Shown one piece after another: positions 21,751-58,589 of a stretch of DNA of 64,000 nucleotides. A program made the position numbers and the translations under genes. The notes under the pieces were generated by a model. That model was not told the origin of the DNA. It did not search any database and saw only the letters and a program-made list of their open reading frames with translations. The DNA lies in the NCBI GenBank assembly GCA_010093815.1, contig ML996585.1. One strand, written 5' to 3'. Each line of letters starts with the position of its first letter. Within the stretch, counting starts at the first letter, position 1. Source of the DNA: Pseudovirgaria hyperparasitica (lineage: Eukaryota).

Positions 21751-21894
21751 TACTCTACTATTATAGGCCTATAGTAGCCCTAATAACCTAATATAAGAGT
21801 AGAGATTTTAGAAAAGAAAGAAATGAATACCAAACGCTAGTACCTAGTATAATCTAATAATAAACTAATACCCGCCTTAAGATATAAAAAGGTT

Positions 21895-23437
21895 ATTTAC
21901 CTAGCCCTACCCTAGGTTTATATGGCGCCGGAGCCGGTGCTATCCTTATCCGTAAATCCTAATATAAGGTTAGTTATCTAGTCCTCCCCTAGGCCGTCTC
22001 CTAATAATAGTAGCGGCTATTAATCTAGGCGGGTAGTAAGGGCGAGTCGTACTCGTCCGTAGGAGGGTTATAGCGGGAGTAGGCCAGCGACCGATAGTAG
22101 TATAACGCTTAATAATCCTCGCGGGAATGGTACCGACGGCTACCCGAGTAATAGTAATAGTTATATAACCGGTTATAATAGTTATATAACTAGTTATAAC
22201 GGTAGGGAGACTAATTATAGTAGGCGGGGGACCGGCTATAACACTCGTAGAACCGGGAGTGGTTACGGTAGTAAGGAGGGGTCTAGAGCTAATAATAAGA
22301 TAGCGAGGACTTATAAGGAGGGGCGGCGATAGAGAGCCGGGGGGGCCTAATAGGGCGATAGCGAGAGCTCCGAGTTAGCGACTCTCTATAGCCTACGGGC
22401 CGGGGTCGGCGCGAGTGGCTACTACCTAATAAGGGCTCCTTATCCTCTATAACTACCTAAGTAATAAGACGGCGAGATAGTAGCTCCGCTAGACGGGCCA
22501 ACCCGGACACGATTTACTATATAGTGCCCTACGTCACGCGTTAGAATAGGTATTTAGGCTTATAAAGCTTATATATCTATAAGGTACCGATACTAGTGCG
22601 TAGCTTACCTATCTAGGCCTCGTTATAGGATATATACTAATTTATCTAGTGAATTACGCTACTAATCTAGCCACGGTTACTACTACCGCGATACGGTAGC
22701 TTAAACAACGTTATAGCGCTATAATAAGGCGTTATAGAAGCCTAACTAATAATACTAGCGTTACGTCGCGCGATATAGATAATCTCTAAGTTAGACTTAT
22801 AGTCCTTATATAGGTAGTAGAACTTAGAGTTTATACGCGGCTACTTACCGGACGAAGGCTTTATCGGGTCTAGGCTACGACTACTACGGTCCATTATATA
22901 GCTAAAGTTATTATTAACCGACTCGTGCATAAACTTTTTAAGATAACTCTACGCCTTACGTAAGGCCGGGTATATAGCGAGCTCCTTAGTATTCTATAAG
23001 TAGATCCCCTTCGACGTGTAGTACTTTATATAGTTAGTACCGTGGCTAGGCTTATAGCTATACTCTAGGATTAGTAGGCGCCGCCACGGCGTAGAGACGG
23101 TATATACCTAAGTACCCTAGTTTTCTCTAGGGCCTTTATATATATATAATATATAAAGTACACGGACTCGGTACGCTCGTCTTCTAACGAGTTACCCTCT
23201 ATAATATATAGCCCTATATAGTAAATAGACTTAGTCTATTAGAGTACGGTAGGAGGAATAGTCTATCTAGTTAGTATAAGGAACGGTATAGGGATAGGAC
23301 CTACTCACGGTGCGATCGGCTAGTTCCTAGTGCCTAGGCGCGCGACGATTATTAGGGTCTTAACCTCTAGTACCTATAGCTACCGCCGAGATAGCGCCGG
23401 CTTCTATAATAGGACTATTTAGGCCTAGAGCGCTTAT
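21895..23437 (-). pseudogene. E antisense spliced accessory gene (Zn-cluster-like N-terminal part, Pro-rich C-terminal part)
   Basis: GT...CTAAC...AG introns at 23263-23308, 22786-22848 and 22529-22608. De-RIPped C-x2-C at 23140-23151 and C-x2-C-x6-C-L-Q at 22994-23032. One junction near 23060-23115 is unresolved. Confidence 0.7.
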
Positions 23438-23598
23438 AATAATAGTATAGAAGCTACGAGGTGGTATACGAGTTTACTAATATCGTAGTAGCTACTACGC
23501 GGTATCGAGATAGTAGGTATAAGGGTAGTTAAGAAAGAAGAAAGTTGCTAGGCGTAGAATCTATATACTTACGTTAGGGAAAATCGTATAGACCGGGG

Positions 23599-24020
23599 TA
23601 GAGCCGGTCCTAAAATAGATAATAATAATAATAAACGCGGGTCGTGCGTAAGCTACTCTACTACTACTATATAACCCCTAGCCTAGAGAGTAGCCGGTCC
23701 TAAAACGGATAATAATAAAATAGGACGCGCGGTTCGTGCGTAGGCTACTCTACCTTTATATAACCTAACGCGGTACGCCGTAATATAAGAAGTCTACCTC
23801 CGCTACGTGACCGCCATAACGTAACTATAAGATTCTACTACCTTATAATTATATAATCTACGACGCCATAATATAAGGAATCTACCTCCGCTATATAACC
23901 GCTAGAATATAACTATAATATACTACTACGGTGCGACCTAATAACCTATAACGCCGTAGTATAAAGAACCTACCTCTACCACGTAACCGCTAGGACGCTA
24001 CTATAAAAAGCTACTACCTT
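23599..24020. repeat. Degenerate ~88-90 bp tandem repeats in the E 3' region
   Basis: Two copies of GCCGGTCCTAAAA...GCTACTCTAC (~23600, ~23690) and three copies of CGCC.TA.TATAA...CTACCTC...ACCGC (~23777, ~23863, ~23952). Confidence 0.8.
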
Positions 24021-24155
24021 ACTAGAAGGAATATATAGCCCTATAGTTATTATATAGTACGATATAAAGACCGTAAACCTAAGATCTAACCGAGCCGGTT
24101 ATTATTATATAAAATACTAAGCCGGTCCCTAGGACGATCCTAGAGAATAAGGGTA

Positions 24156-24357
24156 TATTATAGACTTTAGCTTTACCTTATCTCTAGTATTATATAACGG
24201 AGCCGGGACGGATAGAGACTAGTATAGGGATATTACGTGACCTCGCTTAAGACTATACTTAAAGCTATAACTATACGGCTTATCCCTACTCTCTCTAAGT
24301 TAAATTATAATATATCTTAATTACCATTATAGTAACACCTTAGTTATATCCATTATA
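24156..24357 (+). repeat. 3' LTR of E
   Basis: Direct repeat of 16519-16720. Confidence 0.95.
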
Positions 24358-24843
24358 GATATACTCTTCTAGTCTAGACTAATAGAGTCTAAAAAGGTCT
24401 AATAGTATCTAGTTACGTTCTTCTTATGTAAGATAGCCGACGTTAAGACTAGATATACTATTTATAACTAAGAGCTACTAGTAATAGTAGAGTTATTTAA
24501 GTAGTAGTAATATTATCTTAAAGATACTATATATAATATTAAGTTACTAACTAATTACTATAACTTAAAGGGGTTTATAAGTATAATAGTTTTAAATTAT
24601 TAATAGATTTAATAGACTAAGTAGCTTATAAATTTCTACTTTATAATCTACTATTAATCTAGAAGTATAAACCTAGCTAATAGAATATTAAGAAGATCTA
24701 ACTATAAAGAAGGCGCCTAGAATTATAGTAGCTATAGGGTTCTAGAGTAGCTATAGACCTAACTCTTAAGGATAGGGTTAGATAATAAGTTATCTAATAA
24801 TTAGTAAGATACTAATACTAATACTAGTAATTAAATTTATAAG

Positions 24844-24917
24844 TATAACGATTATAGACGTAGAATAGTAGTCTAATAGGTTATAGAAGAATTTAGAAAT
24901 ATATTTAAAAGGGTAGT
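24844..24917 (-). repeat. 74-bp terminal fragment of a family C LTR (C3), inserted in C1 and abutting C2
   Basis: Duplicates 24918-24991. C1 homology stops exactly at 24843 relative to C2. Confidence 0.85.
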
Positions 24918-25157
24918 TATAAGGATTATAGACGTAGAATAGTAGTCTAATAGGTTATAGGAGGATTCGGGAATATATTTAAAAGGGTAGTCTACTCTCT
25001 TAATAAGGTTAATTCCTAAAGAGTAGGAATTAAGTATATACGGCCTACTTATATAGTAGTCTCGCTTATTCTAGCTGGCTTACCCTAGGTCCACCTATTA
25101 CGGACTATACTAGACTATAGTATTCTAGTTAAGTCTATTCTAGTATTAGCCCTAATA
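24918..25157 (-). repeat. 3' LTR of C2
   Basis: Direct repeat of 32689-32928. Confidence 0.94.
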
Positions 25158-25644
25158 GTATCCTTCTTCTTTTTATGCTTCGCCCCGAAGTACTTAGCTA
25201 TATATAAATCCGTAATTCTATAAGCGTTATGTTTATACGCGCATCTAATTAAATCTATATAACGTTATTAATAGTCTTTATATCGGTAAACTTAAGCTCT
25301 AGTTTACTTTTATTTATACACGCGCTTATCTCTTACTTTATAGCTACTGCCTTAGAGGTAGCTCCGTGGGTTATATGACCGCTATATTAACTAAGCTTAT
25401 ATTTAGTTCTCTTATTCTAAATTTTCTTCTCTAGTATATCTACCTTACTCGTAAGGTAAGTCGTTAATTCGTATACTATCTTCTTTAGTTTAGATCTATT
25501 CGGGTCTAGAGTAGTCTATTTTTATTAGAGCTGGTCCTATATAATCTATTCGCGTTATTACGGTTACTAATTTAGCTTCTTTAATCGCCTTTAAGGCTAA
25601 ACAAGTATTCTACTCTTAGATCTCTAGCTAACGTGTGTATATAG

Positions 25645-26949
25645 ATATCTAATACTAGTTCTATTCCTAAGTCTACCTTCTCCTCTCGCAAGACTCGCTC
25701 TAAAGAGATTATCTCTACCCCGGCTATACCGGCTAAAAAATCCACTTATTATAGTAGTATAAAGGCGCGCTCTAAGTTAGAGAAGAAGGTAGCTAAGGCT
25801 ACTACTACTATTACCACTAACGTGGCCACTAGTCGCTCTAATCTAGGTAATCCTAGTACTAGTATTGCGGAAGAGGTAGCTATAAAGCCTATCTATACCT
25901 ACTCGCGCCGTCTATCTACTCTACCTCCTTTAGAGGATAAAGAAGATCTTATCGTAGATAATAATCGAGAGTTTACGCCTTTACCGCCTCGCTCTAAACG
26001 CCGTTCCTCTTTTCGGTCTAATATAGACTAACTTAGTTACTCTAGGTCCTTTTAGGACCTTAATATTTACTCTAAACCTAGCTCTAGTAATAATAAGGTC
26101 TAGGTCGCTAAAGATACTAAACGTAGTCGCGGTTTACGCTATAGAAAAACGGCGAACTACGGTTTAATATACTTTAAGTATATTAAGGCTTACGCCACCG
26201 GCTCTAAATATCTCTTCCGCTCTAACTCTAGTATTAGCTACTACTCTACTAACCGCGATAGGTCTATATACCTAATCTTTAAGCTCCCTACCCGCTACCG
26301 CCGCTATACCGTCCTCGGTAAAGTTTATCTTTAGATAAGTCTATTAGACTATTTTAGTCTAGGGTAATCTAAAGTCGTCTATACTAATACGTTTTTAGGT
26401 TCCTATTTATATATAAGATATATATAACGATCTTCGCGTCCGCGAGACTCTCGGTAGTTCTAGTAGTTATCTAGCTTCTATGCGTAGGGAGTTTAGAGAG
26501 CGCTATAAGCTCTTTCTAGAGGTTATTAAAGTATAAGTTTAGAAACCGTTAATTATTATTAACCTTAGCTTATAATTTTTAGTCGCCGCGAGATTTCTAG
26601 CGCTTAGACTACCTATTCTAGGGAGTCGGTTTTAGCTACTAAGGCCGTAGAAGAGATTCGTACTATTCCTTCCCGCCCACCTCATACTACTAACAGATCT
26701 TATAAGAGATCTACTAGTTCTCCTTCTAAGTCACCTTATAAGAGGGTATATATTCTATTCTAGATTATTCTAGACCGTGTTAGCTAACTTTAGGTCTAGT
26801 CGCTCCGCTCTAGCGCTTAGTCGTTATCTTACTAGACTCTAACCGAGCGCGTGGTTACTCTAGAGGATAAGGTCTCTAACCTCCGTCGCTCTATTACTTA
26901 GTTAGTTCGGTTACTACGCTCTAAGAGTAATAATAAGATAGAGGAGTAG
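25645..26949 (+). pseudogene. C2 antisense spliced accessory gene (Zn-cluster-like domain plus C-terminal coiled-coil-like segment)
   Basis: The frame from ATA (RIPped ATG) at 25645 includes track ORF 25822-26031. De-RIPped CFECIKA (26170) ... C-x8-CRRC-x6-C-L-Q (to 26334). Putative intron 26335-26398, then VP. Ends ...ERVV.LED.VS.LRRSI..LVRLL. Confidence 0.72.
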
Positions 26950-27200
26950 CTCTATGGCTCTGTTTGCTAGGGTTTCTATATAGTGTGTATTAGCTCTATC
27001 TACCTGGTTTCTATCCGTTTTAGTCCTTTTTAGACCGTTTAGATACCTATCTACTAGTTTTCTAGTAATTTAATTCTTAACTTAATGATATTATATACGT
27101 TCTTATTTATTCTATAACTATTAAATTTTAGGTTCTAATTTCCTTTAAGTTACTTAAGTGTAGGTATTATATATAAATTAGTTTATCTCTCTAAATTATA

Positions 27201-27300
27201 TTAGAGCACCCGAACTAGTGGCCTAGTGGTTATTAGTTCGGGTACTCTAACCTTTTATATTATATATCATGAGTTCAATTCCGTAGTAGGGTATCTTTTT
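27201..27300 (+). promoter_or_regulatory. Pol III type-2 promoter-like module (A box, B box, T5) overlapping a 17-bp hairpin
   Basis: TGGCCTAGTGG 27219-27229; GAGTTCAATTCC 27271-27282; TTTTT 27296-27300; inverted repeat 27201-27217 / 27234-27250. Confidence 0.5.
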
Positions 27301-27469
27301 AGTTTCTTAGTCTTATATTCTTCTCGTATATAATGGTCTATATTAGTCTATTCTAGACTTCTCTATGTTATTCTATTATAATATATCGCGTCGCGTGCCT
27401 ATAACGGTTATTTATGTTTTCTTCGCGTTTAGTAACCGTGCATCGCTTGAATTATAGGGCTGCCTTATA

Positions 27470-30400
27470 GAGTTTTCCTAGTGTACGTTTAGAATTCGTA
27501 ATTTAATACTTTATTCTCTACGGTATCCTTCTTCTTTTTACGACGGCCCTAACGGCGCTAGGTTTATAGTAGTAACGTGTTATTCTATAACCTCTATTTA
27601 TATATAGCTATCGCGGTACTTAAGATATATACCGTAGGTTCCTAGGTGTTCTTATCCTTGGTGTAGTTCTTCTAACGGATTTAATACTTTTAGATACCGT
27701 TCTCGTCGAGCCTATGTTTAATAATATAGTCTACTTCGTATACGTCTAGTCTATCTTAGGGTATAATAGAGTGTAATTATATGTTTATACGTTTATACAC
27801 GTTAGGTCGAAACCTTTTAAGTAATAAGACGTAGAATACGTTATGGACTTTTATATCGTTTCCTAGGTTAAGCTCATAGGCTCTTATACTAATGCGACGT
27901 TTAATTCGGAAGGGACCAGCCATTTTATAATCGAGCTTTTTATTTACTCGCGACGTTTATATATTATAGACGTTAAGGAGAACTTCGTCTCCCTTCTCGT
28001 ACGCTTAATCTTTAACTAATCTATTATAGTACTTTATATACGACTTATTCGCTTACTAGATTATTACGCGATAGTTACGTACGGTTTTAAAGATTTTAAT
28101 TACTAGTTCCTACGCGTAGACGTTAACATCTATCGTTTGGTCGAACTAGACCGTGTAAGGTTCGAAACCTATCCTTAGACTACGTCCTAGGTTCGCCTAG
28201 AAGGGTGTAACACCTATTATACTATAACGACTATTATTATACGCGAATTCTACTATACTTAGTAGAGAGACCTAGTTATCTTATTTAAAATTATAGAATG
28301 CACGAAGGTAGGCCTCGAGCGTTTGGTTCTATCGCTCTATCTAACTATCTATTTATAGATGGAATACTATTAACATGTTTCTATTTATACCGGCCATTTC
28401 GTAGAATAACGTCTAGAATTTAGACGTGAATATACTCCCTCGGTCCGTAACGATCCTTTTTAGTATACTATGGACCTTAATAATCTTATTCTAGAATACT
28501 TATACTAGTTCTTTTAATATAATCGTCTTCTATATAGGGACGTACCTAGACATCTTTATAAGTCTATCCACGATAATAAGAATTAAATTATAACTCATTC
28601 TAAGCATCTTACTTAGAGGTAAGTTAACTATAAAATCTATAGTAATATCTTCCTATATAAAGAGGGGGACTAGTAGAGGCTATAAGTTCCTATATAGCTT
28701 ATATCTAGATGCCTTTATTCTTTAATAAATCGGATAAGTAGCTATCTATTCTTCGACGTACTTAGGTATATCTTTCTAAAAATAGTACTAACGAATCGAG
28801 CTTAGGGTGCGTATATACCCGAAATATCCTACTAGGTTAGCGTTATGGTATCGGCTAACTACGGTAAATCGTGTATTATCTATCGGTATATAGTACTTTC
28901 TATTATAGTAGAGTAAGCCGTCTATAAAGGTCTACTTATAGTCTACTTCGGTCCGTAATAACCTATCTTACTATATTTTACATAACTTTAAAACTATTAG
29001 GTCTATCTTTTATAGATCTATAATTAACTAGGTAAGGTCTACTTAATATATACGCCGGGTACTATCGCCCTCCCTAATAGCGCTAATAAATGGCTCGCTA
29101 GGGACTTCGGTACCGCGATTTTAGTTACCGGCTTCGGTCTTATAAATTTAATTACCGGTATTAGCGTTAGTATCTCGCTAATTATCGGATAACTTATTAT
29201 CTAACCTCGTCCTTAAGAGTTAGGCCTATAGCTACTCTAGGACCCTATAGCTACTATAATCCTAGGCGCCTTCTTTATAGTTAGGTCTTCTTAATATTCT
29301 ATTAGCTAGGTTTATACTTCTAGGTCGATAGTAGATTATAAAGTAAAAGTTCGTAAGCTACTTAGCCTATTAGACCTATCGATGATTTAAAACCGTCGTG
29401 CTTATAAACCCCTTTAAGTTATAGTAATTAGTTAGTAACTTAACGTTATACATAGTACCTTTAAGATAATATCGCCACTACTTAAACGACTCTACTATTA
29501 CTAGTAGCTCTTAGTTATAAATAGTATATCTAGTCTCGATGTCGGCTATCTTACGCGAGAAGAACGTAACTAGATACTATTAGACCTTTTTAGACTCTAT
29601 TAGTCTAGGCTAGGAGAGTATACCCGAGATTATAAATTCTAATATATTAGTTTCGACGCGAATAGATTTAGTTAGATCGAAGTACACTAGTAATAGGGCG
29701 GTTATAAATGCTTCTTTAATCTTCTCGAAGGATGTTCTTTTAACCTTAGTTAATTTAATAGGTTATAATTTAATATTACGCTATTTCTATCCACCACGGA
29801 CCGTAATAGACGAGTCGGTAGTAGTAGTACACGCATTAAGTAGTACGGCTAAACGGGAGAAGTATTTAATAAATTTTCGGTAGTAGTTAGCGAAGCTAAT
29901 AAAGACATGTATATCTTGAACGGATTTTAGTTTAGGCTAGTCTATAATAGTAGTAACTCTATCTCTCTCTATGGTTATACCTTAATTAGTAATAATAAAG
30001 CTAAGAAAGTTAATATGGTCCTAATGGAACTCGCATTTAGATAGCTTAATATATAGCTTATACTTTTCTAGCCTATCTAGGACTATACGTACGTGCTAGA
30101 TATACTCCTCCTCGTTATCTAAGAAGATAAGGATATTATCTAGGTACACGATATATATCGTATCGAGTAGACCTACTAGCGCGTTATTAATATACGCTTA
30201 GAAGGTACCTAGCGTGTTAGTTAGTCTAAAAGAGACCACGGTATACTTAAAGTATCTATAACGGGTTCTAAAAGCCGTTTTCTATTTATCGCCTTCCTTA
30301 ATGTAAAGGCGATAGTAGGCGTTACGTAGATTAAGCTTAGTAAAGATCTTTACGCGTCCTAGTCTATTAATAGACTCGGAGATAAGAGGTAGTAGGTAAC

Positions 30401-32630
30401 GATTCTTTCGCGTAATATTATTTAGGCTATAGTAGTCGATATATAGACGGAGACTCCTATCCTTCTTCTTTATAAAGAGGATTAAAGCTCCGGCTAGAGA
30501 TATACTAGGCCTAATCTATCCTCGCGTAAGGTTCTTTTCGATATATTCTCGAAGGGCTTATAACTTAGATTCTAAAAGAGGGTAGATGGGTCTATATAGA
30601 GGTTGCTAGCCGTCTTTAAGATTAATAGTAAGGTCGGTAGATTAGTATTAAGGTAGTTTGGAGAAATCGATCGCTAACGCGATACGTTAGTATATTTTAT
30701 ACTAATATAGTAGGTTTTTATCTACTTTAATACTAAGCTCGCTATTTTATATAAGTAAGAGTATATAGATAGTAGAGATCGCCCTCTTATAATCTTTCTA
30801 GAATTATTCGTCGTCGATAAGCTATACTAGTTCCTATTAAGGTAGGTTTATACGCTAGCTAGCTATCTTCTTAAGGAAGTCTAGTTTTAGATTATATTTC
30901 TTAAGCTACGGTATACCTAGGATTATATTAAAGGGACTATCTACCACGATAAAGGTTAAGTAGTAGAGTTTCTATTTCCCTCCGCTATCCTAGATACCGT
31001 ATTTAATAGTATAGGTGCCGTATAACTTAATAGGACCGTTAATGCCATGGAACATGGCACCTATTAGAGCTTAGATGTCGGTATTAAGTTCTCGTGCTCG
31101 TTAGGTCGATATAACGTTAGTGGCTAACCTACTATCGAGTATTATAGTCTAATATTATCCACGAGGGACCTCGATAGGTCTAGTCTATAGTTTAATATAC
31201 TATTTAGCGGATTACCCCTCTATTATAGTCGCGTCTATAAGTTACGAGGGTTTCTTATAGACTATTAGTTTTTTATATTCTATGCTAGGTAGTTAGGCGT
31301 AATATGTCCTAGCTACTAGTACTTATAGTATATAACTAGTTAGTTAGTTATATTAGTACTTAGTAGCTTCCCTAAACGGTACTTAAGTACTATATAGTCT
31401 ATTCTACTATAGGTATAGTAAGTGACTTTAGGTTATTTATGTGAGTCGGTCCTTATATCTTAATATATTAATTAGTAGGGAGATCCACGATACGATCCGC
31501 GTGGTTTTGAATTTAAGGTATAGTAGTAGCCTCGTGACGTCCCGCGAGATCTATTACTAAATCGGTTTTAGTTAGACGATTTTACGTTAGATTAGATCGT
31601 TAGGGATAGTCGTATACTAGCGCGGCGTTAATTATTTATTATACGCTAGTATCGCTCCGCGAGGTTTATAAGAGCTTAGAGGTCTATAGAGATTATTATT
31701 ATAAGGTCGAGACGGTCCTTTATATTTAGGGCGAGGGACCGTTTAAAGTCGTTATACTATCGAATTATATAATCTTCTTCGGCTTCTCTCTAGAGGGGCC
31801 GAAGGTATTTAAGGAGTTATAACAGTAACTAATTATCTCGTTATCGAGTCTCAAAGATATAGCCCTAGACCTAGTCGCGTCATTCAGCCCTATTACTAAA
31901 ATATTAGAGAAGAAATTCGGTAAACGTGTCCTAGTTATAGGTATCCTTAGGATGTTCGATTTAGTATACTATCTAACGTTCTAAAGGCGTTAGGTCGAGA
32001 TAGTTCTAGGCGAATCTAATTTTATTACTATCGTTCGTAAATAGATAGAAGAATCAGCTATATTAGTAAGCCTATACGTAGAAACTCTTTCTACTTTTAC
32101 TATCGAAGTAAGGTAGTTTCTTAGATCGAGGTAATTAGAATAGTAGTAGACTAGAATGGATTATTTTAGTTAGTATGGGTCTATATAAATATAGATTGGT
32201 TATTACTAGAACTAAAGCGCGTAATATAGCTTTAAGTCTTATAGTACGTCCTTAAGCTTCGTCGAGTTCGTGTAGTTATTACTTAAGTTAAACCTATCGT
32301 TACCTCTCTTCGTGTAGTCTAGTATATACGTTATTATAAGATATAGTTAACGTTAGGCGATTCTAACGGATTAACTCGTTAACGTTAATAAGGTCTAGCC
32401 TTGTATTAAGGTTAGGTCTAGTATAGTTTGAACTAGACTAAGATAGAGTATAATAGACTCTATCCTTGTATTCTATAATATCTTCTATAGTTATACGGAA
32501 TGTCGTACGAGTTATCGGTGCGATAGCCTATAAGATATAGTTATTAGTAGGGGTAGTTATAGGTAGACTATTCTCCTCGTTTAGGTTAGAAGAAGGTCTA
32601 CTATAAGAGGCGGTGCGACGGGTGTTATGA
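27470..32630 (-). pseudogene. C2 gag-pol (PR-RT-RH-IN-chromodomain), RIP-inactivated
   Basis: YLD(D) ~30135-30146; integrase ~28100-28650; chromodomain YEVD.IIKHR...IR(W)KNY....T(W)EP ~27620-27745. Confidence 0.92.
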
Positions 32631-32688
32631 CGAGTAGTTAGAGCTATTTCTATAAACTACCGTCGTACTATATAAAGAGGAATTAAAA

Positions 32689-32928
32689 TATAAGGATTAT
32701 AGACGTAGGATAGTAGTCTAATAGGTTATAGGAGGATTTGGGAATATATTTAAAAGGGTATTCTACTCTCTTAATAAGGTTAATTTCTAAAGAGTAGGAA
32801 TTAAGTGTGTGCGGCCTACTTATATAGTGGTCTCGCTTATTCTAGCTGGCTTACCCTAGGTCCACCTGTCACGGACCGTACTAGACCATAGTATTCTAGT
32901 TGAGTCTATCCTAGTGTCAGCCCTAACA
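32689..32928 (-). repeat. 5' LTR of C2 (retains the TG start; CA on + at 32927-32928)
   Basis: Direct repeat of 24918-25157. Confidence 0.94.
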
Positions 32929-38700: not shown

Positions 38701-38875
38701 TAGTCTAGTAAAGAGGACTTAGTATTTAAAGTATATAAACTAGTAGATACTAAGTTTTAGCTACTACTTTATTAAGATTATTAATAAGTTAAGTTAAATT
38801 AGTTATAAAGTATACTATTTTCTATCTATATATCCGGTCGGTTATATTTATATATCTAACCGGTTCGTTACTATC
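35773..38875 (-). mobile_element. Family D, copy D2 fragment (protease, gag region, end of 5' LTR at 38800-38875)
   Basis: 36438-38875 matches 9986-12489. The de-RIPped minus frame at ~36020-36330 gives a protease-like (C)LD(TG)S.V.LI(DR)AFL ... LLL(GM)DI motif set. Confidence 0.82.
37681..38434. other. Assembly gap (754 N) within D2
   Basis: N run. The flanks map to 11228 and 12048 in D1, so ~819 bp is expected. Confidence 0.99.
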
Positions 38876-39090
38876 TATTAAGGGTAGACCCTAGGTATAC
38901 TTAACGCTAGTATACTACGCCCGCGCTACTACTCTCTCCTTACTTAACGAAGCTAAGCGAGCCCCTTTTTAATAGTATACTCTATCTCTTATCTTAAGAA
39001 AGCTAAGTAGACTCTAGCTTTCTCTCTTATTAAACTTACTATATTCTATAAATACTCTTATATCTATATATATATTATATTCCCGTAATA
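38876..39090 (+). repeat. 5' LTR of B2 (~215 bp)
   Basis: Homologous to 35558-35772; followed by a PBS complementary to 39029-39038. Confidence 0.8.
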
Positions 39091-40746
39091 TTAAGTTTAA
39101 TTCTATTTTACTCTCTAAGTACTTTACTATAGACTTTAGAGATAACATATAGGGTAACACTAGGGGCGAGCTAGGCTAAGACCTAGGTCTAAATATAGGG
39201 TTATAAAGTACTAAAGAGGTAATCTTTAATCTACTATAACGCTAGTAAGCCCTTAAACGAGAGATTCTTACTATAAAAACTAAGCCTTCTAGAATTAATC
39301 GAGCCCCGCTATAAATAAACTACTAAAGTCTCTACTTAAAAAGATAACCTTAACTCTATAAACCGACTAGGAACTATTAGAACCTAGGGACTAGAAACCG
39401 CCCTTCTAGGATAGTAAAGTAGCTACCTTCCGAGACTATCTATTATAGTTATATAGCTTCTATAAGATATAATCCGCGCTTAAGCTAAAGCTATCTCTAG
39501 ATTACTACTAGAATATTATCTATAATACCCTACTAGTATATAAGAGAAACTAAATATAATACTTCTAGAAAAGGGGAGACTCTATAAAAGATAAGGACTC
39601 TAAAGCCTTCTTTATATAACTTAAGTATATATTTATAGATAGTAATAAGAAGGCTAAGGCCTTAGAAAAGCTTTCATTACTTAAATATATAAATAGCTAA
39701 CCTTAGTATAAATACTAACTTAAATTTAATAGACTTCTACTAAGCACTAGCAGAGATAACTAGAAAGATAGTATAAAAATTAGCTATCTCTAAAATACCT
39801 TCTTAAACCCCACTCACACATATATAGCCTCTATACTAAGAATTATAGACTACTATAGCTTCGCGGAAGAGATTAAGAGAATTATAATAAACTTAGAAGA
39901 TACTAAGTAGTTTAAGATAGCTAATAAGAAGTAGAAAAAGGATATAGTTACTATAATAAAAAGCACGGTAGCTATAAGATTATATAAGTATTATACTATA
40001 GCTAAAAAGAATAAGAATAGAGATACTATTATAGGCCCTATATATATAAGCGGAGACTAGAAGAAAGAATCTAGATCTCGCTATAAGATAGAGAAGATAC
40101 TAAAGGTAAAGTAGATTAACTAAGTAGAAAGAGATAGATACTAGAAAGAAGGGCTCTACTTCCGTTATAGGGTATCGGGATACTAGATTAAAGGCTACCT
40201 ATATACTAACCCCTTCTTAACCTCTAAAAGAATTATAAAGATTAATTAAGTTAAAATTATACCTCTATTAGAGATTAAAGATAATCTTATAGATTCTAGT
40301 AATAAGTACTTAGAAAATATATAACTCCCTCTTAAAGTTAAGAGTAGAGAGTAGAGAATATACTAGTAGATAGATAGACCAAGTTCCGAAGTATAATAGA
40401 TAGAAACCTTATATATATAGATATAGTTCTCTAAAAAGCTATTAGAACTTTTACGCTTATTAATAAAGGCTACTAGTACTATACTATAATTTAAGAAGAT
40501 CTAATAGAAGGTCTAGAACTCCCCTATATAAATTATATAAAGTATATAATTAAGGGAGTAATAGATACTATAAATAACTCCGAAATTTAGGGAGTTATTA
40601 TATTTTATATAGAGATAGATAATTATAGATAAGATATCTACGCCTATATAGTACCTAACTTAGCCTTTCTACTTATTCTTAGAAACCCTTAGAAAGTATA
40701 TAATAAGATATAGACCGCGCTCGATAAGCGACGGTACTACTACGGC

Positions 40747-40974
40747 TATTAGGACTTAGCCTTAGGTATAACCCGATCCGTACGTACCTTAGCTAACAGG
40801 GTTAGAAGGTGGCGGGAAGGGCGGTAAATAGTTACGTGCTAGATAGATCGGCGTCCCTTTATATATATACTCTTAGATTTCTACTAAAAGGGTTTAGTAG
40901 TAATTCGTTCTAGGATAGAATATACTATATTATTCTATCTAACTATACTACTATCTAATAACCCTATTCTTATA
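40747..40974 (+). repeat. 5' LTR of A2
   Basis: Direct repeat of 48347-48574. Confidence 0.95.
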
Positions 40975-41059
40975 TTCGAATTACTCCCTATATAGTACTA
41001 TAGTTAAGATAGTCTAACTAGAACCGAGAAGGTTAACACGATCTACTATAGAGATAAGT

Positions 41060-44000
41060 AATACTATATTAAATAATAGGGATCCTCTATAATCGGTATT
41101 AATCCCGGCCGTTTCTAACCGAGAAATAGAGATATTAGACTAAATTACGGAGCTTTTAGACGAAGAGATGGTAGATATACTAAGTAACTTCTAATAATAT
41201 AAAGTTAGATAATAAGTCGTGGCGGAGCCACGTAAGGTATTATAATAAACTATTACTAAACTTTAGAAATATATCGCGAATTAGACTTAAGAGATTTAAA
41301 CCTTTAAAGAATAGATAGAACGCGCGAAACTCCTCGTAAAGAGACAAGAACTTAAGAAGTCTCTTAAAGAACTACGCCGAACGATAGTAGGTAGATAACT
41401 TTCTATACTAATTTAGGCGGAATTAGTTTACCTACTATTAGAGTTATAATAATCTACTATATACCCGGCCGCTTCGTTACCGATTTACTCTACTCCTTCC
41501 CTAGATATACCAAAACCTAAAGACCCAACTATATTTATAGGGAAGAACTAAAAGAAGTAGAAAGACTAGAAGAGAGACTACGAAAAGTACTTCCTCGATA
41601 ACCCTCTACTCTTTTCTACTAAAGTATAACGTATTTCGTTCGGAGAACGATACCTAGACTTATAATTCCGTAATTAATAGAATAGATAGAAGGAAGTATA
41701 GCTACTATCTACGACAACCTAGGAATATTTAGCTATATTTATACTAAATACCCTTAGAACGGATAGAGAACGTAAAAGAAAGGTACTATCTAAGTTAAGA
41801 AGCGTGGTATAACGACCGAACTAGACACCTACTTAACTACTATAATACCTCTAAAACCTATAGGATAATATCCCTATACTATAGGAAAATATTTATATAT
41901 TCTAGTTTCGCGAAGTACTACTTCCGTTAATCTACGAAAGACTAGAAATAGTATTATTAAGTTTTAACTATCTATATAAATTAGAGACGAAAGCTAATAA
42001 ATACTACCGCATCCTTAAGGAACGCGGCTCTCTAGGTAAAACCGACGAACCCTATATGGGTTAGAAACGAGGTTAATTAAATACGTTTAATTAAGAGTAA
42101 CCTTACCATAATTAGCGCTAGAAGAGTATAAATTAGAGTAGAAACGCATTAAGAGAATACTAAAATAATTAAGACGGTGCTTCTTAATACGGAAAAGGAT
42201 AAGGCATAGACTTAAATATAACACCTATTATAAAATAGTAGGATTATAGCGCACTTTATTACTATAAGTATAGAGAAATAGAATATATTTTACCTAACTA
42301 TAAGAATCTAAAAAAAGAATAGGCTAGTATACGAGACCTAACCGCGTTCTTAGCTAAATTATATATACTTAGAAGGAGCCGTAGCGCCTTCCGGTAAGTA
42401 AAGACCTAATATTACTAAAAGTATTATTATCTATAGTAAATGGTAATAAAACTATATAGGCCCTCGTGGATACTAGTATAGAAGATAACTATATTTTATT
42501 AATTCTCGTAAAGGAGTATAGATTATTATACGATCTTAGTAAAGTTAGCTAAACTATTATAGTTAATAGATATAAAGTTAGAACTTTAGGCAAAGCTATA
42601 ACGAATTACGAAGTTTATAACTTAAAGATAATAAAATAGTAGATGTCTAATAAATTTATCGTGGCTAATATTAGCTAATAGAATATAATTCTAGGCATGC
42701 CTTAGCTTAGACGCCTAAATCTAATCCTTAATTTCTAGAAGAAGATATTAACGTTCCGACGACACTATAGTAAATTATACTAGTAAGTTATAACTATTAG
42801 TAAGGAGGTATAGAACCTCGCTATATAGATCTAATTATTATTAATCTATCTTACGTCCTTATTAATTATTAATAAAGATAAGAATAATAGTAATAATTAG
42901 GGCGAAGACACGCTATCTAACGTATATTCGTAGTATATGGATGTGTTTTCGGTAGAAGATACGTTACTTCTCCCTAACCACGGGCTATATAAGCTAAAGA
43001 TCGAGCTCGAAGAGAGAGTAGACGTCCCTTATAGTCTACTTTACCTACTTTTAAGACTAGAACTCGAAGTTCTTTATAAATATATTAAAGAATACCTCGG
43101 AAGAGGCTAGATACGTTATAGTACGTTATCGGCTAGCGTATCTATTCTCTTCGTAAAGAAGAAAGATAGAAGTTTATATCTATACGTTAACTATTAGATA
43201 CTAAATACGGTAACTAAGAAGAATTATTATCTATTACCGCTAGTTAGTAAATCTTTAGACTAATTAACGAAGGTAAAGTACTTTATAAAGCTAGATTTAC
43301 GAGATATATATTACCGGCTTTAAATTTATTACGGAGATAAGTAGAAAACTACATTTCGGACTAGATATAGTTATTTTAAGTATACTATTATACTATTTAG
43401 GCTAATAAATACGCTAGAAGCGTTTTAAGGATATATTAATACTATACTTATAAAATTACTTAACGTGATTTACGTAGTTTATCTTAATAATATACTAATT
43501 TACTCTAATAGTAGATAGAATTATAAAGAACACGTGAAATCGGTGCTAAATCGTCTAAGGTAGTATAAACTCTATGTAAAATTATCTAAATACGAGTTTT
43601 ACTAATAACAAGTTAGGTTTCTCGGCTTTATTATAACATATAGCGGCCTAAAAATGGAGCCGGAGCGTGTAAAGACTATTATAGAATAGCTAGAATCTAC
43701 TACTATACGTTAAATTAGAACGTTTATAGGTTTCGTAAACTATTATTATAAATTTATTATAGACTTCTTATGAATTATAGCGCCGCTTAATAAACTCATA
43801 GAGAATAGCGGTAAAATCTCTATAGGTAGGCGAGTATAGCGTAAAGCTAAGTCGGTCGAGATATAGTTAACGCCGGAAGCGTAAGATACGTTCCGATCAT
43901 TAAAGAATTACTTTATAACTACGCCGATTCTTAGGTATTTTAATTCTAAAAAGTATATTCGGGTCGAAACTAACGCGTTAGAATTTATAATTACTAGAAT

Positions 44001-46440
44001 TATTAGTTAACCGTATAAAGATATAAAAGATAAGATATAATAGTACCCGGTTACCTTCTTTTCCTATAAAATAGCGGATATAGAGACGTGTTATAATACG
44101 TATAACTAGAAACTACTTATAATTATCGAGAGTTTTAAGTAATAGTAATATTATTTAGAAGGCTCCGTATATTAGATTAAATTATTATTAGATTATATAA
44201 ATCTATATTACTTTATATTAACTAAGGTCCTTAATCGCNNNNNNNNNNNNNNNNNNNNNNNNNNNNNNNNNNNNNNNNNNNNNNNNNNNNNNNNNNNNNN
44301 NNNNNNNNNNNNNNNNNNNNNNNNNNNNNNNNNNNNNNNNNNNNNNNNNNNNNNNNNNNNNNNNNNNNNNNNNNNNNNNNNNNNNNNNNNNNNNNNNNNN
44401 NNNNNNNNNNNNNNNNNNNNNNNNNNNNNNNNNNNNNNNNNNNNNNNNNNNNNNNNNNNNNNNNNNNNNNNNNNNNNNNNNNNNNNNNNNNNNNNNNNNN
44501 NNNNNNNNNNNNNNNNNNNNNNNNNNNNNNNNNNNNNNNNNNNNNNNNNNNNNNNNNNNNNNNNNNNNNNNNNNNNNNNNNNNNNNNNNNNNNNNNNNNN
44601 NNNNNNNNNNNNNNNNNNNNNNNNNNNNNNNNNNNNNNNNNNNNNNNNNNNNNNNNNNNNNNNNNNNNNNNNNNNNNNNNNNNNNNNNNNNNNNNNNNNN
44701 NNNNNNNNNNNNNNNNNNNNNNNNNNNNNNNNNNNNNNNNNNNNNNNNNNNNNNNNNNNNNNNNNNNNNNNNNNNNNNNNNNNNNNNNNNNNNNNNNNNN
44801 NNNNNNNNNNNNNNNNNNNNNNNNNNNNNNNNNNNNNNNNNNNNNNNNNNNNNNNNNNNNNNNNNNNNNNNNNATTCTCCGCGGGAATTAGAGCGGGTAT
44901 TAAGTAATCTAAATAAATATCTAAGGAAATAAGAAAACCCTTAAAGACTTAATTAAATCTACCTAGAATTCTAATATATTAGTAAAGAAAGTTATAAGTA
45001 TAAAAGGAAGTACTATAGATCCGCCGTAGTTATTAAGATAGAAACGATAATCGGACGCGATCTACTTCTAAGGCCGACTCTACGTGCCGGAAGGCGGCTT
45101 ATAAATTAATATTTTAAGGGAATAGTATAATTACGCGTTAGTAGGATACTTTAGCGTTATAAGGACGGTCGATTTAATCCGAAGGACGTACGACTAGCCG
45201 GGTCTTTAGAAATATATAAAGGACTACATAAAAACGTATAACGTTTACTAGTATATAAAAGTATATAGATACTTACTATATAGTAAATTAAGGCTATTAC
45301 CTATACTAAAGGAGGCATAGAAGGAATTATTAATAGATTTCATTATAGATCTACCCCTAAGTAAGTATTCTAGGTATATTTATAATAGTTTACTTATAGT
45401 TCTAGATAGATTTATAAAGATATTATACTACATCCCTATAAGAAAGATAATCTAAGTACCGGATCTTATAGATATACTACTCCATAACGTAGTTCGGCTC
45501 TATAGTATACTAAATAGTATAGTTTTAGATAGAGGTCCGTAGATAACATCTAAATTTTAGAAGGATTTCTACTATATACTAGGAATTAAGCGGAAACTTA
45601 GTACTATATTCTATCTATAAATAGATAGATAAACGGAGCGGTAGAATTAGATAGTCGAGGCGTATTTACGTGTATATTATAACTATAAGTAGAATAACTA
45701 GGTAAGGTTAGTCTATGTCGCGGAATTCGCGTATAATAATAGCTAATATATATTAATCTACGTAAGTCTATTCAAAGTAAACTTCGGTTAGAACTATAAT
45801 ATATAGTTCTTAGAGACTTAGTTTAAAGTAGAACGACCTAACGTTAAAGTAATAGAAATTACTATAGAACTATTCTAAACGTAAAGAAGCGTTATAAAGT
45901 TACTATAAGATACTACGGATTATAGTAAATCGCACTATAACAAGGGTAGAAAACCCATGATCTTTAATATTAGGGATAAAGTTTTACTAAATAGTAAGAA
46001 TATTCGTAGTATTAGGCTAAAGAAGAAGCTTAACTATATAATAATAGGTCTATATAAGATTACTCGTGTAATTAATAACCAGGTATACGAGTTATAACTC
46101 CCTCCTATATTAAAGATATATAATATATTCTATATTACGCTTCTCGAGCCATTTTATATCTTATCGTTACCGGATCGTTCCGAATAGATACTATATAAAG
46201 TAGTTATGTAAGAAGGTATAGATATCTACGAAGTTAAGTAGATACTTAGCTAGTAACACGCCGAAGATAGTACATGGCTATATAAAATTTATTAGAAGGG
46301 ATATAATTCTAACGAAGATACTTAGAAACCTATAATAAATATTAGTAAAGTAGCGATATTAGTATATAAGTAGCGATTAGTAAAGGAAGCCGTGGAATCG
46401 TAGAGAATTATACTAAAGTACGGCGATTTAATATTTTTTA
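41060..46440 (+). pseudogene. A2 gag-pol (PR-RT-RH-IN-chromodomain), RIP-inactivated
   Basis: CCHC ~42220-42265; ALVDT ~42460; VYL(DD)IL ~43477; integrase ~45330-45790; chromodomain YEV..IL ~46227. Confidence 0.92.
44239..44873. other. Assembly gap (635 N) within A2 pol
   Basis: N run. Confidence 0.99.
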
Positions 46441-46879
46441 GTATAGTTTAGCGCTAAGGACGGCCGCCTAAAAGGAAGAAGGTTAAAGAGACATAGATCT
46501 TTAAAAACACTCTAAGGAATTAAGGAACTTCCTTAGAAAGTTCGAACTTAGAACTCCTTTAGAAAGTTTAAACTTAGAACTTTAAAAAAATTTAACTAAA
46601 AAAGAGACTTAGAAAAATGATTTACTAAGAGAAATGGACATCGAAAATTAGTACCGATTAGTATAGATCGGTATAGATTACTAAAGAGATTAAAGAAGTT
46701 ATTATTAAAGAAAGATAAAATTAAGAAAGCTAAAAGAAAATATAAAGATCTATATAGATCTATATAAATTCGTACTAATCTATCTAGAAGAAGTAAGATC
46801 GCTTTAAAATTAAAACTAAAAACTAAAAACGCTAGATAAAAGAAATATATTAGTACCGATTAGTATAGATCTAAACTAA

Positions 46880-47861
46880 TTAAGTTAGAGTAGGAGTAGA
46901 AGTACTAATTACCGCGATAGTTATATCTAATTCCTTCTACTAGTTCTTATTTAGCATAGTATAGAGCTTTATAATATAAGTCTCTAGCCTTTCGTTCTAA
47001 CGCTATAAATTCTATATAGCGCGTCTTATAGCTATAAACTCCTCTATAGAAACCTACGGAGCGGCGGGACCTAGAATAGAGAGAGATAGACCGGCGCGGG
47101 CACGCTAAGAATTATATAAATTAGCGAAAAGATTTAATAATCGGTATAGAACCATATACCTTTAGTATAGAAACTTCTAGATTAGAGCTATCTTCCCTAA
47201 ATTTACGGCTCTTTAGTATACGCGAGGAGGGAACCTTAGCCTTTTTACTAGAATCTTTTCTAGGAATTTTAATATTACTAGTATATAGAAAGAAGTCCGA
47301 AGTAGTAGAGATTTTAGTACTATTATAGAGATTAATATATATTAATAAGAATCTATAATAATTTAAGAAAAACGATATTACCTAGTAATCGTAGTAATAA
47401 TAGCTATAGTAGATTCTAATAAATCCTTACGGATCTTATTAGAATCGTACTCCTAGGCGTAACCCTTACCTTAGGTATATAGCTCGTAGAAAGCCTTCTC
47501 TAAGGTATTACAATTAGTAGTACTACGCTCCTTATTAGTAGAGGTTACTAGAGGCCTAGTAGTAATCTATACTAATATAAGTAAATCTACGTAAAGTTCT
47601 TCGAACTTATTTAATTACCTATAAGTAATAACGCTTCTTAGTTATATAAGTACTATATATTATAGATTTAGTACTACCGTAAGCGATATATAACGGAAAG
47701 CAATAACTATAATAATATATAGCTAGATTATTAGAGCCCGGCCTAGGTCGGGGTAGATTAATAGCTTTTAATATATTAGTAATGTATATAAGATAGGGAT
47801 TATTCGAAGGCGCCTGTTTCCGTACTAATTACTTTAGAGCGTTAAGATTTCGGGAAACTAT
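46880..47861 (-). pseudogene. A2 antisense spliced accessory gene (Zn-cluster-like domain plus C-terminal coiled-coil-like segment)
   Basis: De-RIPped P-C-L-x-C (47784-47798); intact TGC at 47700-47702; C-x2-C-x6-C-L-Q at 47619-47657; GT...AG intron 47567-47618; downstream frame broken only by TAA/TAG, with EEF...RRA..NL.R.NERLE near the end. Confidence 0.7.
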
Positions 47862-48346
47862 ATTATAATTATTACTAATTTATATAGATTATTATAAATT
47901 ATTATTATTACTAGCTAAATACGGCACGAAAATTAGTAAATTATATAAATCGTACTAAATTATAGTAAATCTATATAAATCTATATCTATAAGGATTGGG
48001 TAATATATCTAATAATCTAAAAAACTCTATAAAGAGTTAAGAAGTTTTTTAAAGAAAGGAGAATTTCTAAGAAAAGATTTTAATATAGGTAGTACCTAGG
48101 CTTACCTAATTATATTACGTGATACGCTAGGCCTAATTAGGTAATCTTACCTATGTAAGAATTTAGGATAGATAAACTCTAGTTTATTAGGAAAACGCTT
48201 ATATAAATCTTAGATTAGTAAATATTAGTAAATATCTAAGACGAAGTATAGAGAATGACTAAGGTCTTACGAGACTTAGGATAGGGATATAGAAATAGAT
48301 AATAATCTAGGTTACTAAGGGTAGCTTTCTAGAGGGAAGAGATAAT

Positions 48347-48574
48347 TATTAGAACTTAGTCTTAGGTATAACCTAATCTATATATACCTTAGCTAATAGG
48401 GTTAGAAGGTGGCGGGAAGGGTAGTAAATAGTTACGTGCTAGATAGATCGGCGTCCCTTTATATATATACTCTTAGATTTCTACTAAAAGGGTTCGGTAG
48501 TAATTCGTTCTAGAATAGAATATACTATATTATTCTATCTAACTATACTACTATCTAATAACCCTATTCTTACA
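48347..48574 (+). repeat. 3' LTR of A2 (ends ...TACA)
   Basis: Direct repeat of 40747-40974. Confidence 0.95.
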
Positions 48575-49847
48575 ACGGCTAAGTAAAGTAATAGATAGAT
48601 AAAGGTCTTAACTACTATAAGCTAGGGACCGCCAAAGAGTAGGCGAACTCTATAAAAGAATATAAGAACTCTAAAGGGGCCCTTATAGTAAACGCGGTAT
48701 CTATAGAGAATATCTATAAGGCGCTAGAGAAGAAGAAAGAGCTATTACTAGAATAGATACGGAAGATACTACCCCCGTAACTCTAGAATATAGCTCTACT
48801 ATTTTCTAAAAGGGAAGTAGATAAACTCACGCCGTACTAACTAGGTATTAATTATAAAATTAAGATATATAAGAAAGCGGATAGAATACTAATAGACTTA
48901 CTATAGAGATAGCTATTTAGTATAGTAAAGGACGAGCTTCTTATACTAGTAAAACTTCTAAGAGACCTTCTAGTAAAAGAGCTAATTTAGTATACTATAT
49001 TAGAAGCTATAGCCTCTATATTATTTATAAGAAAGCCTAGCGGAGGACTCTAGTTCTATTATAACACTACGCCTTAAATACTATTACTAAGCCCGACTAA
49101 TATCTCTTACTACTAATACTAGAGACCCTCCGAAATCTAACGGACGCTAAATAGTTAACTAAGGTAGATGTTATCGCCGCCTTCTACTAGATCCGTATAG
49201 CCTCTAGCCACGAATATAAGATAGCGTTTAGAACTCGGCTAGGGTTATTTAAATAGATAGTATACCCGTTTAGATTATTAGAGGCTCTAGTAACCTTCTA
49301 ATAGTATATTAACTTCTTACTATAAGAATAGCTAGATAACTTTACTTTAGTCTATATAGATAATATAATTATCTACTTAAATAGATTAAAGAAAGACTAC
49401 TTTAGTAAAGTATATATTATTCTTTAATGAAAAACTTCTTTTACATCCCCAAGAGGCCAACTTGGTCCATTCGGGGTAATATAGCGAGATACACACCTTA
49501 ATCGATAGAGTATACTAAGTACACCAACTACTACTACACGCACGTACGTACAGCGTCGAAACCAAGACGTTATCGCCGTGTAAAGATATATATATACCCT
49601 CTTAAAATCCTCACGGAGATAGAGGCACGGACCACGCTACTAGAACGCCAATACGCCGACCCCCTTTTTATTAGTTAAGGGTAGCCCTTAACTAATAAAT
49701 ATAGCGGCCTTAGGCACCGATATACCCTGGTATATACTGGATATACCCCTACCGGTATAATAGAAAAGGCCATATAGCGACATTACCGAGGGTAACTATA
49801 TATCTATCTAAAATATAGAACACACCTAAAGGCGCACGCCGCCATAG

Positions 49848-51160: not shown

Positions 51161-51169
51161 ATAAGAGAC

Positions 51170-58582: not shown

Positions 58583-58589
58583 ATAAGGG

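Follow-up and report, generated by a model that had tools for sequence, protein, structure and literature searches.

The closest described counterpart of the genes considered here is brtn, an extra antisense gene in the Boty-like Gypsy elements of Botrytis cinerea and Sclerotinia, which are fungal chromodomain-bearing Gypsy elements with the gene placed antisense to gag-pol between pol and the 3′ long terminal repeat (LTR) (Zhao et al. 2011, as cited in PMC7264820, PMC8365987, PMC4227169 and PMC5987419). The passages that cite brtn name no DNA-binding domain, and it is compared here by description only; by these accounts, a fungal Gypsy element with an antisense gene in this position is already on record. 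The plant Ty3/Gypsy elements Grande1, RIRE2, Retand and PvRetro13 also carry antisense open reading frames (ORFs) between pol and the 3′ LTR, which share position and orientation with the genes below, are conserved within families and are given no assigned function in the passages of PMC7264820 that treat them; these elements differ in being mostly not chromoviruses, and the same passages name no Zn2Cys6 cluster. Here we analyzed 64,000 nucleotides of contig ML996585.1 of Pseudovirgaria hyperparasitica (assembly GCA_010093815.1), the whole of which is referred to as the window and which holds three chromoviruses, E, C2 and A2, degraded by repeat-induced point mutation (RIP). An earlier note, made from the letters of the window, had claimed that each of them carries an antisense, spliced Zn2Cys6-like accessory gene between pol and the 3′ LTR. 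A class of antisense, spliced Zn2Cys6 genes at this position in chromoviruses is real and apparently undescribed; the odds that the dead copies in the window belong to it are about even. The earlier observation is real in its essentials and was over-read for E and C2. No Zn2Cys6 gene in a retrotransposon was found described in the searchable open literature, which included passages of 'LTR Retrotransposons in Fungi' and has most subscription journals outside it, and a prior description of the gene class may exist.

The Zn2Cys6 cluster is a fungal-type domain, and the evidence for its presence in chromoviruses comes from intact relatives of E. With the integrase–chromodomain part of E as query, 33 intact Pols were retrieved, the best at 46% identity, and an alignment of 13 intact Pols was then scanned against metagenome contigs. 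The best 79 of 604 confirmed stretches were used as loci, 43 of which extend for at least 1,200 nt downstream of the pol match. When all six frames of the 79 loci were searched for the strict, stop-free pattern C-x2-C-x6-C-x5-12-C-x2-C-x6-8-C, six matches were obtained and all six lie antisense to pol, five of them 403–858 nt past the pol match and the sixth (L022) at the equivalent place in a wrap-around contig. Half-clusters of the form C-x2-C-x6-C are found 74 times antisense versus 20 times sense, and halves paired within 36–300 nt occur 13 times antisense versus not once sense. Eleven of these pairs (L017, L018, L022, L030, L040, L051, L056, L062, L072, L075 and L078) lie 346–934 nt past pol, with L022 counted by wrap-around; the other two (L012 and L053) lie elsewhere. 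The L012 pair (L012:16325-16575, minus strand) falls beyond the element, 9.3 kb past the pol match, and may belong to a host Zn2Cys6 gene or to another element.

Short introns account for the separation of the halves at several loci. Introns of 50 nt (GTGAGT...TAG) in L018, 49 nt in L078 and 46 nt in L056 join the halves into C-x2-C-x6-C-x10/11-C-x2-C-x6-C, which brings the Zn2Cys6 spacing to six loci directly and to these three after splicing; L072 and L075 have the same paired halves with no intron resolved. In L017, a 57-nt intron (GTAAGT...CAG, with a branch box 15 nt from its end) joins a K/E-rich exon 1 to the cluster, as does a 70-nt intron in L051. All five introns (46–70 nt) have GTAAGT or GTGAGT donors and YAG ends, and four of the five contain a CTRAY box (none is listed for L078). 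The ratio of nonsynonymous to synonymous substitution rates (dN/dS), also proposed earlier as a check, was 0.18 on the antisense frame of L062 versus L022 (dS near saturation) and 0.16 for L017 versus L030, whereas these triplets give 1.23 and 0.95 when the opposite strand is read, where stops are present. The antisense gene of the relatives is under purifying selection, and its position and strand are established by the strand-specific dN/dS together with the canonical introns. In L062 the pol frame (1786-6033, plus strand) stays open for 245 codons past the chromodomain and overlaps the whole antisense gene (5237-5905, minus strand); in this overlap selection acts on the antisense frame. On the pol tree, the gene-bearing loci fall into two clades.

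The intact proteins were assigned to the PF00172 (Zn_clus) type by spacing, profile and fold. Pfam, run on the 65 antisense open frames that reach or exceed 120 aa, gave one weak Zn_clus match (L062, E = 0.0062); the remaining antisense matches were to MULE transposase, gag, copia reverse transcriptase (RT) and, weakly, a DAXX histone-binding domain. The 84 sense frames matched gag, protease, hAT and a few weak coiled-coil or other families, with no Zn_clus among them. The 199-aa product of L062 has 30 relatives at E ≤ 0.001, referred to as family (a), including hypothetical proteins of Bipolaris maydis C5, B. sorokiniana, Pyrenophora teres and Exserohilum turcicum; some carry the UniRef name of Zn(2)-C6 fungal-type domain proteins, and they are known here from protein matches. 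In an alignment of 23 members the six Cys are invariant and are followed by SLFV and a long charged segment, and ten of the 23 are recognised by Zn_clus at E ≤ 0.1, with 5.7e-5 as the best value. A PDB sequence search with the family-(a) profile returned no match. The AlphaFold2 model for family (a) (mean predicted local distance difference test score, pLDDT, of 71) places a helix at residues 72–131, with pLDDT of 90–99 in the 10-residue blocks over 71–130. The ten best Foldseek matches in the PDB are all Zn2Cys6 DNA-binding domains (GAL4, PUT3, PPR1, HAP1, Leu3 and Pho7), with a template modelling (TM) score of 0.63 over 40 columns and a root-mean-square deviation of 2.3 for GAL4 (1aw6); the structure prediction called for earlier, run on an intact protein of family (a), returned GAL4, PUT3 and PPR1 as best folds. 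Two figures count against the domain assignment: the L062 protein (P0035) scores 17.5 bits with Zn_clus versus a gathering cutoff of 21, and the Foldseek E-values are weak (0.4–1.5), the latter in line with a domain of 40 residues. For family (b), represented by L017, the language model points to look-alikes in clusters that bear the label Basidiomycota, and a Zn(2)-C6 fragment is the automatic name of one of these look-alikes; this match is a lead only.

Some loci of the set depart from this layout. L055:6158-6799 (minus strand) keeps the C-terminal helical part of family (b) with no cluster flagged, and L073 and L043, from the same pol clade, have room for the gene and were not flagged; decay or divergent clusters may be the cause in all three. 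Other mobile-element genes occur downstream of chromovirus pol at L036:5824-6321 (minus strand), L004 at about 3900–4300 (minus strand) and L035:13000-13731 (plus strand), where MULE transposase and a hAT dimerisation domain were matched by Pfam and a Tc1/mariner-like transposase was recognised by eye only; these are probably nested insertions.

The window itself is a RIP-mutated fungal repeat nest with a heavy mutation load. It is A+T-rich (G+C 20–45% across the 64,000 nt), and stops take up about 10% of each of the six frames, with Tyr at 9.1% and Cys at 0.4%. Self-blastn of the window revealed nested LTR elements, among them the following three.

16519–24357, plus strand: element E, a RIP-mutated chromovirus with 202-bp LTRs at 16519–16720 and 24156–24357, delimited by self-blastn.
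24918–32926, gag-pol on the minus strand: element C2, likewise a RIP-mutated chromovirus, whose 238-bp LTRs lie at 24918–25155 (the 3′ LTR in element orientation) and 32689–32926.
40747–48572, plus strand: element A2, a RIP-mutated chromovirus with 226-bp LTRs at 40747–40972 and 48347–48572 and a run of N at 44235–44890.

The LTRs of the three elements are unrelated to one another and their Pols are 28–48% identical in pairwise alignment. On sense frame 1 of E, Pfam matched RVT_1 (6.4e-19) and RNase H, and E pol shares 40–46% identity with the 13 intact Pols that match it best and in which rve, RVT_1 and RNase H domains are present; the LTR pair that brackets gag-pol and the Gypsy order of RT, RNase H and integrase are both there. 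Chromodomain-like Pol ends (for example, VLVKxKG) were read by eye in all three elements (in E at about 21618–21709). Pfam gave no Chromo match on the RIPped copies; PF00385 is precomputed on several of the related intact Pols. E, C2 and A2 are three distinct chromovirus families, and this part of the earlier claim, including the unrelated LTRs, was borne out. E is inserted into a C-family copy, C1, now split into 13186–16511 and 24360–24843; C1 is opposite to C2 in orientation and spans only the 5′ LTR, gag and part of pol, and therefore supplies no second copy of the region of interest. A2 is inserted into another repeat, the uninterrupted form of which lies at 33053–35773. The A2 flanks (38875–40742 and 48580–49426) match that form as a filled-site/empty-site pair, which fixes the ends of A2 and shows the nested insertion. 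Runs of N, either gaps or withheld stretches, are present at 37670–38440 and 44235–44890; the second sits in A2 pol, and part of the RT/RNase H region is lost.

Each element contains an accessory region between the chromodomain and the 3′ LTR.

21710–24155, minus strand: E accessory region, a candidate antisense coding relic running from the chromodomain to the 3′ LTR, about 2.45 kb.
25156–27583, plus strand: C2 accessory region, a candidate antisense gene relic, about 2.43 kb.
46390–48346, minus strand: A2 accessory region, a candidate antisense gene relic, about 1.96 kb.

The distance from chromodomain to 3′ LTR is 1.95–2.45 kb in all three elements, compared to gaps of only 73–281 nt in several related loci. 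In C2, the phase of TA shows a period of three (P = 4.2e-7, 1.4e-4 and 6.5e-5 at about 25.5–26.4 kb), as does the purine/pyrimidine (R/Y) pattern (P = 1.2e-5), and this is the strongest period-3 signal of the element, the best value in C2 RT being 1.1e-4. In E, the TA phase gave P = 7.6e-6 (21919–22368) and, further on, 3e-3 and 2.4e-3; the signal in A2 is weak (P of about 0.03–0.05). Overall, the period-3 TA and R/Y signal of the accessory regions is as strong as that of RT/pol or above it, and the regions were once coding-like. In pol, the TA-enriched phase is the junction of codon positions 3 and 1, so that one candidate frame could be picked on each strand. In C2, the antisense partner frame has 5 stops versus 12 in the sense partner frame (non-overlapping 180-nt windows at 25651, 25831, 26011 and 26191), and in A2 the antisense frame has fewer stops than the sense frame in most sub-windows. 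Stop counts in C2 and A2, together with intron-like phase shifts, favour the antisense strand without settling it. Of the earlier claim that an antisense frame occupies the same position in all three elements, the position between pol and the 3′ LTR holds throughout; the antisense strand is favoured at best, and in E the stops tie.

The copies in the window are all dead, at about one stop per ten codons, and the longest stop-free antisense frames are 134 aa at 21973–22374 (minus strand) in E, 128 aa at 25645–26028 (plus strand) in C2, and 87 and 86 aa in A2; stop-free frames of similar or greater length (159, 132 and 118 aa) occur elsewhere, at 50–61 kb. Read on the sense strand in the pol frame, 21973–22374 of E reads as a G/S/Y/N/R-rich tail, and copies of E differ there by skips of 77–100 nt.

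With Tyr read as a possible former Cys, the pattern [CY]-x2-[CY]-x6-[CY]-L-[Q/stop] occurs exactly three times in the six frames of the window, at 23032 (minus strand), 26296 (plus strand) and 47657 (minus strand). The three sites fall one in each accessory region, all antisense to gag-pol, at 1,414 nt (E), 1,370 nt (C2) and 1,356 nt (A2) from the KWKG anchor of the chromodomain. Simple arithmetic from the residue frequencies of the window puts the chance of the 13-residue motif at about 1e-5 per position, and, even if the post-hoc choice of motif is allowed for generously, chance is unlikely to have put it at matching positions, to about 60 nt, in two more elements. A second motif, [CY]-x2-[CY]-IKA, has just two sites in the window, 26170 in C2 (126 nt upstream of the C2 second-half motif) and 23151 in E (119 nt upstream of that of E).

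23032–22994, minus strand: E second-half motif, Y-IK-Y-YTSKGI-Y-L-stop.
23151, minus strand: E motif Y-YI-Y-IKA, in a frame other than that of the E second half.
26170, plus strand: C2 motif Y-FK-Y-IKA.
26296–26334, plus strand: C2 second-half motif, Y-RR-Y-TVLGKV-Y-L-stop.
47711–47619, minus strand: A2 motif Y-SY-C-FPLYIA-Y-GSTKSII-Y-ST-Y-ITKKRY-Y-L-stop, with full Zn2Cys6-type spacing.

The A2 spacing is C-x2-C-x6-C-x7-C-x2-C-x6-C, with one true Cys and five Tyr. The strict Zn2Cys6 pattern, with C or Y allowed, has ten matches among the 128,000 codons of the window, and only that in A2 is stop-free. Of the proposed C-x2-C...C...C-x2-C-x6-C-L-Q in all three elements, the second half therefore stands in each of them but the full spacing in A2 only. 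The C-x2-C-(I/M)-K-A said to be shared by C and E is present and confined to these two sites in the window, but the E copy is out of frame. The caution that most Cys calls are reconstructed and could be Tyr or His was well placed: Tyr codons stand at five of the six 'Cys' positions of A2 and at every one in C2 and E, and Arg is a further possible source.

Candidate introns and heptad-like segments follow the motifs in C2 and A2.

About 25645–26334, plus strand: C2 candidate exon 1, which holds the 128-aa stop-free frame and both motifs.
26335–26398, plus strand: C2 candidate intron 1, 64 nt, ATAAGT...ACTAAT...TAG, found by hand.
26531–26607, plus strand: C2 candidate intron 2, 77 nt, GTATAA...TAG, found by hand.
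About 26770–26950, plus strand: C2 heptad-like, Q-rich segment, by eye.
47618–47567 (52 nt) and 47381–47320 (62 nt), minus strand: A2 candidate introns, similar in reading to those of C2.
About 47090–46990, minus strand: A2 heptad-like segment, by eye.

The dominant phase in C2 shifts 0→1→0 at about 26300 and about 26500, and both the lengths of the 64- and 77-nt candidate introns and the frames that result from their removal agree with these shifts; the two introns contain branch-like boxes and finish in YAG. Intron 1 begins directly after the L-stop of the motif and its donor reads AT, not GT. The intron signals in the window are plausible readings and no proof. The proposal of an intron right after L-Q in A and C agrees, in C2, with the phases and lengths but not with the AT donor; the heptad-like C-termini proposed for the same two families are there to the eye.

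Among sequencing runs, the stretch was listed for two DNA contig sets of one sample and for no RNA set, and 12,751 and 5,257 pieces of the two sets mapped on 21000–28000. In the contigs of run X1, transitions make up 608 of the 629 places that differ, the signature of RIP across many copies. Small indels relative to other copies are listed in nine rows with one contig behind each, and none of the variable places listed (40 of 683) falls at a motif codon. The contig depth of the accessory regions is about that of the flanking pol, depth not being equivalent to copy number. At several places, among them 22876–7, 22944–5 and 23392–3, the window copy of E has TA where nearly all other copies have CG. 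RIP here therefore also converts CpG, on both strands, and such double changes add Arg to Cys, His and Tyr as possible ancestors of the TAY codons. One 193-nt contig of run X3, of unassigned kind, maps to 26860–27014.

A number of results weigh against placing the window copies in the gene class of the intact relatives. Period-3 and R/Y patterns are blind to strand; the sense and antisense partner frames of E tie in stop counts, and the same criterion chooses the wrong strand on E pol. The 134-aa frame of E is a G+C-rich low-complexity stretch open on both strands. An R/Y codon model was dropped after cross-validation failed, with the true frame best in 2 of 22, 12 of 17 and 6 of 18 windows. 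TAY codons may derive from four amino acids, and Tyr is common in all frames of the window. Read straight, E and C2 lack a canonical first half, and removal of any single GT-AG intron restores no cluster in either; among 15,301 candidate GT-AG introns with a branch-like box, the one match lies outside the accessory regions. By pol, the loci nearest E (L001, L004 and L003) and those nearest C2 and A2 (L046, L037, L029, L021 and L076) show no such gene or have short gaps. L040, a gene carrier, is among the better matches of C2. Of 82 rows the pol tree kept 78; A2, with 41% coverage, was left out, E and C2 sit on long branches distorted by RIP, and for the window the tree is uninformative.

Homology searches from the window point the same way. 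Between the three regions, the best blastp match has E = 0.018 against a tiny database and is not significant, RIP-aware scoring with per-codon ancestor sets placed the real region pairs no better than reversed controls, and DNA alignment of the three motif regions gave no convincing homology; the absence of mutual similarity was an outcome that the earlier note had itself named as telling against its claim. The C2 frame found no match in 1.84 billion representatives with phmmer, and the E frame none among 2,105 word-sharing candidates in a word-based search. Pfam found no family on any of nine antisense frames at E ≤ 5; the profile check suggested earlier thus gave no Zn_clus match, a result that is weak as counterevidence because it is expected if the Cys were lost to RIP. 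RIP-aware scoring against six intact antisense proteins and a RIP-aware position-specific scoring matrix of family (a) both gave top matches that are scattered over the window and off the motifs. The family-(a) profile gave no domain rows with hmmsearch on the six-frame window, tblastn of family (a) on the window elements and the loci found only L062 and L022, and tblastn of the window frames on the loci found nothing below E = 0.13.

Taken together, E, C2 and A2 are RIP-killed chromovirus copies, each with a module of about 2 kb between pol and the 3′ LTR that is most likely the relic of a gene antisense to gag-pol. The product of the gene in the intact relatives is predicted to have about 165–330 aa, with a basic or charged N-terminus, a GAL4-type cluster and a long coiled-coil helix, and in family (a) also an acidic tail. 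Transcription would start antisense from the 3′ end of the element and be followed by splicing. The short antisense introns persist because the genomic RNA of the element is the opposite strand. The protein may dimerise through the coil, bind DNA through the zinc cluster and regulate transcription, most plausibly from its own LTR; it may act as a transactivator, anti-silencing factor or targeting factor, as the earlier note proposed by inference. Of the claim of a conserved element-encoded DNA-binding regulator, the kind of gene holds for the relatives, where it exists intact and under selection and would have such a role, but no sequence link to the window copies was found. As a whole, the best explanation, in which the window regions were once genes of this class, is about as likely as not.

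The alternative that survives best, although we consider it unlikely, is that the accessory regions encoded an antisense protein of another kind, one related in type to brtn or specific to the lineage and either lacking a Cys/His motif or having a different one, and that the resemblance of A2 to Zn2Cys6 and the half-motifs in the other two elements arose from Tyr-rich RIPped sequence and a short conserved motif of other meaning. Such a protein would agree with the lack of a canonical cluster in E and C2 and of similarity to the intact zinc-cluster families, and with the residues after the last Cys, which are L-Q in the window versus SLF, EWP, KPF, GMT or DGN in the intact families and never L-Q there. 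It would also agree with the place of the motif, 1.36–1.41 kb from the chromodomain anchor versus 0.35–0.93 kb past the pol match in the relatives (the reference points differ), from which a much longer protein, with a longer C-terminal part, is implied in the window. There is a precedent in brtn of Boty, an antisense gene for which the passages of PMC7264820 state no zinc cluster. Against this, A2 has the exact Zn2Cys6 spacing with one surviving Cys, as the sole stop-free match in the window; the order of a Cys-type motif followed by a heptad-like segment has the orientation and place seen in the intact class, and the zinc-cluster loops of the intact families are themselves very diverse.

It is improbable that the signal never came from an antisense gene but from the sense strand (a third ORF or a C-terminal extension of Pol), a captured host fragment or a low-complexity spacer: the strand-blind periodicity, the sense frames of E that are about as open as the antisense ones, the low-complexity G/S/Y/N/R-rich tail open in the pol frame at 22063–22329 and the purine-rich sense strand of the accessory regions would all allow it, but the antisense partner frame has fewer stops in C2 and A2, the phase shifts, given how few indels are listed against other copies, are better explained by introns than by an uninterrupted sense ORF, stops (about 13–15 per 100 codons) part the E chromodomain from the low-complexity stretch, and the sense frames past pol in the relatives hold gag, protease and hAT of a next element and no regulator.

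Further repeats lie outside the three elements. The stretches 49398–54730 and 56803–62118 (also 2586–5018) are copies, about 72% identical and about 7.4 kb apart, of a less mutated element that may belong to a non-Gypsy family, since E pol gives no match to it. Gypsy pol fragments occur between the two copies, at 54754–56446, and at the start of the first copy, at 49071–49424, where the fragment continues the repeat that flanks A2.

For the window alone, the interest of an antisense Zn2Cys6 gene is historical: what is left are dead, silent relics within a repeat compartment degraded by RIP. The usual view is that LTR retrotransposons depend on transcription factors of the host. If the preferred reading is true, a selected, element-borne DNA-binding factor whose loss is prevented by antisense introns would give the element its own regulatory switch, which could activate, counter silencing or guide targeting. 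It would also explain orphan Zn(2)-C6 hypothetical proteins in plant pathogens such as Bipolaris, Pyrenophora and Exserohilum, and would bear on gene annotation and on the counts of transcription-factor families in fungi.

The intact proteins share with the GAL4-type factors (GAL4, PUT3, PPR1, HAP1, Leu3 and Pho7; PF00172) the spacing of the six Cys and, immediately behind the cluster, a coiled-coil helix. They differ in being very short (about 165–330 aa), in scoring below or near the Pfam gathering threshold, in a first loop that is often not basic and, in several cases, in an intron inside the cluster; host Zn2Cys6 factors have a large middle homology region, which the element proteins lack. 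The anti-silencing VANC proteins of the Arabidopsis VANDAL transposons, the analogy drawn in the earlier note, are sequence-specific and act on copies of their own element. VANDALs, however, are DNA transposons and VANC is of another protein family. In human T-cell leukaemia virus type 1 (HTLV-1), expression of HBZ is driven from the 3′ LTR side. Antisense retroviral genes of this type are treated in PMC10186651. HBZ likewise resembles a transcription factor and has a dimerising helix, and its gene is spliced and lies antisense in the 3′ part of a retroelement. HBZ is a basic leucine zipper (bZIP) protein of an animal retrovirus with no homology to the proteins described here, and the likeness is one of layout and presumed logic. 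We tentatively propose, at somewhat less than even confidence, that several fungal chromovirus lineages (in Pleosporales, Ascomycota, and, by the language-model lead only, Basidiomycota) encode their own antisense, intron-holding and selected GAL4-type coiled-coil factor, which would regulate their own LTR or its silencing as a counterpart of HBZ and is annotated as stray Zn(2)-C6 proteins, with the families in the window as further, longer members.

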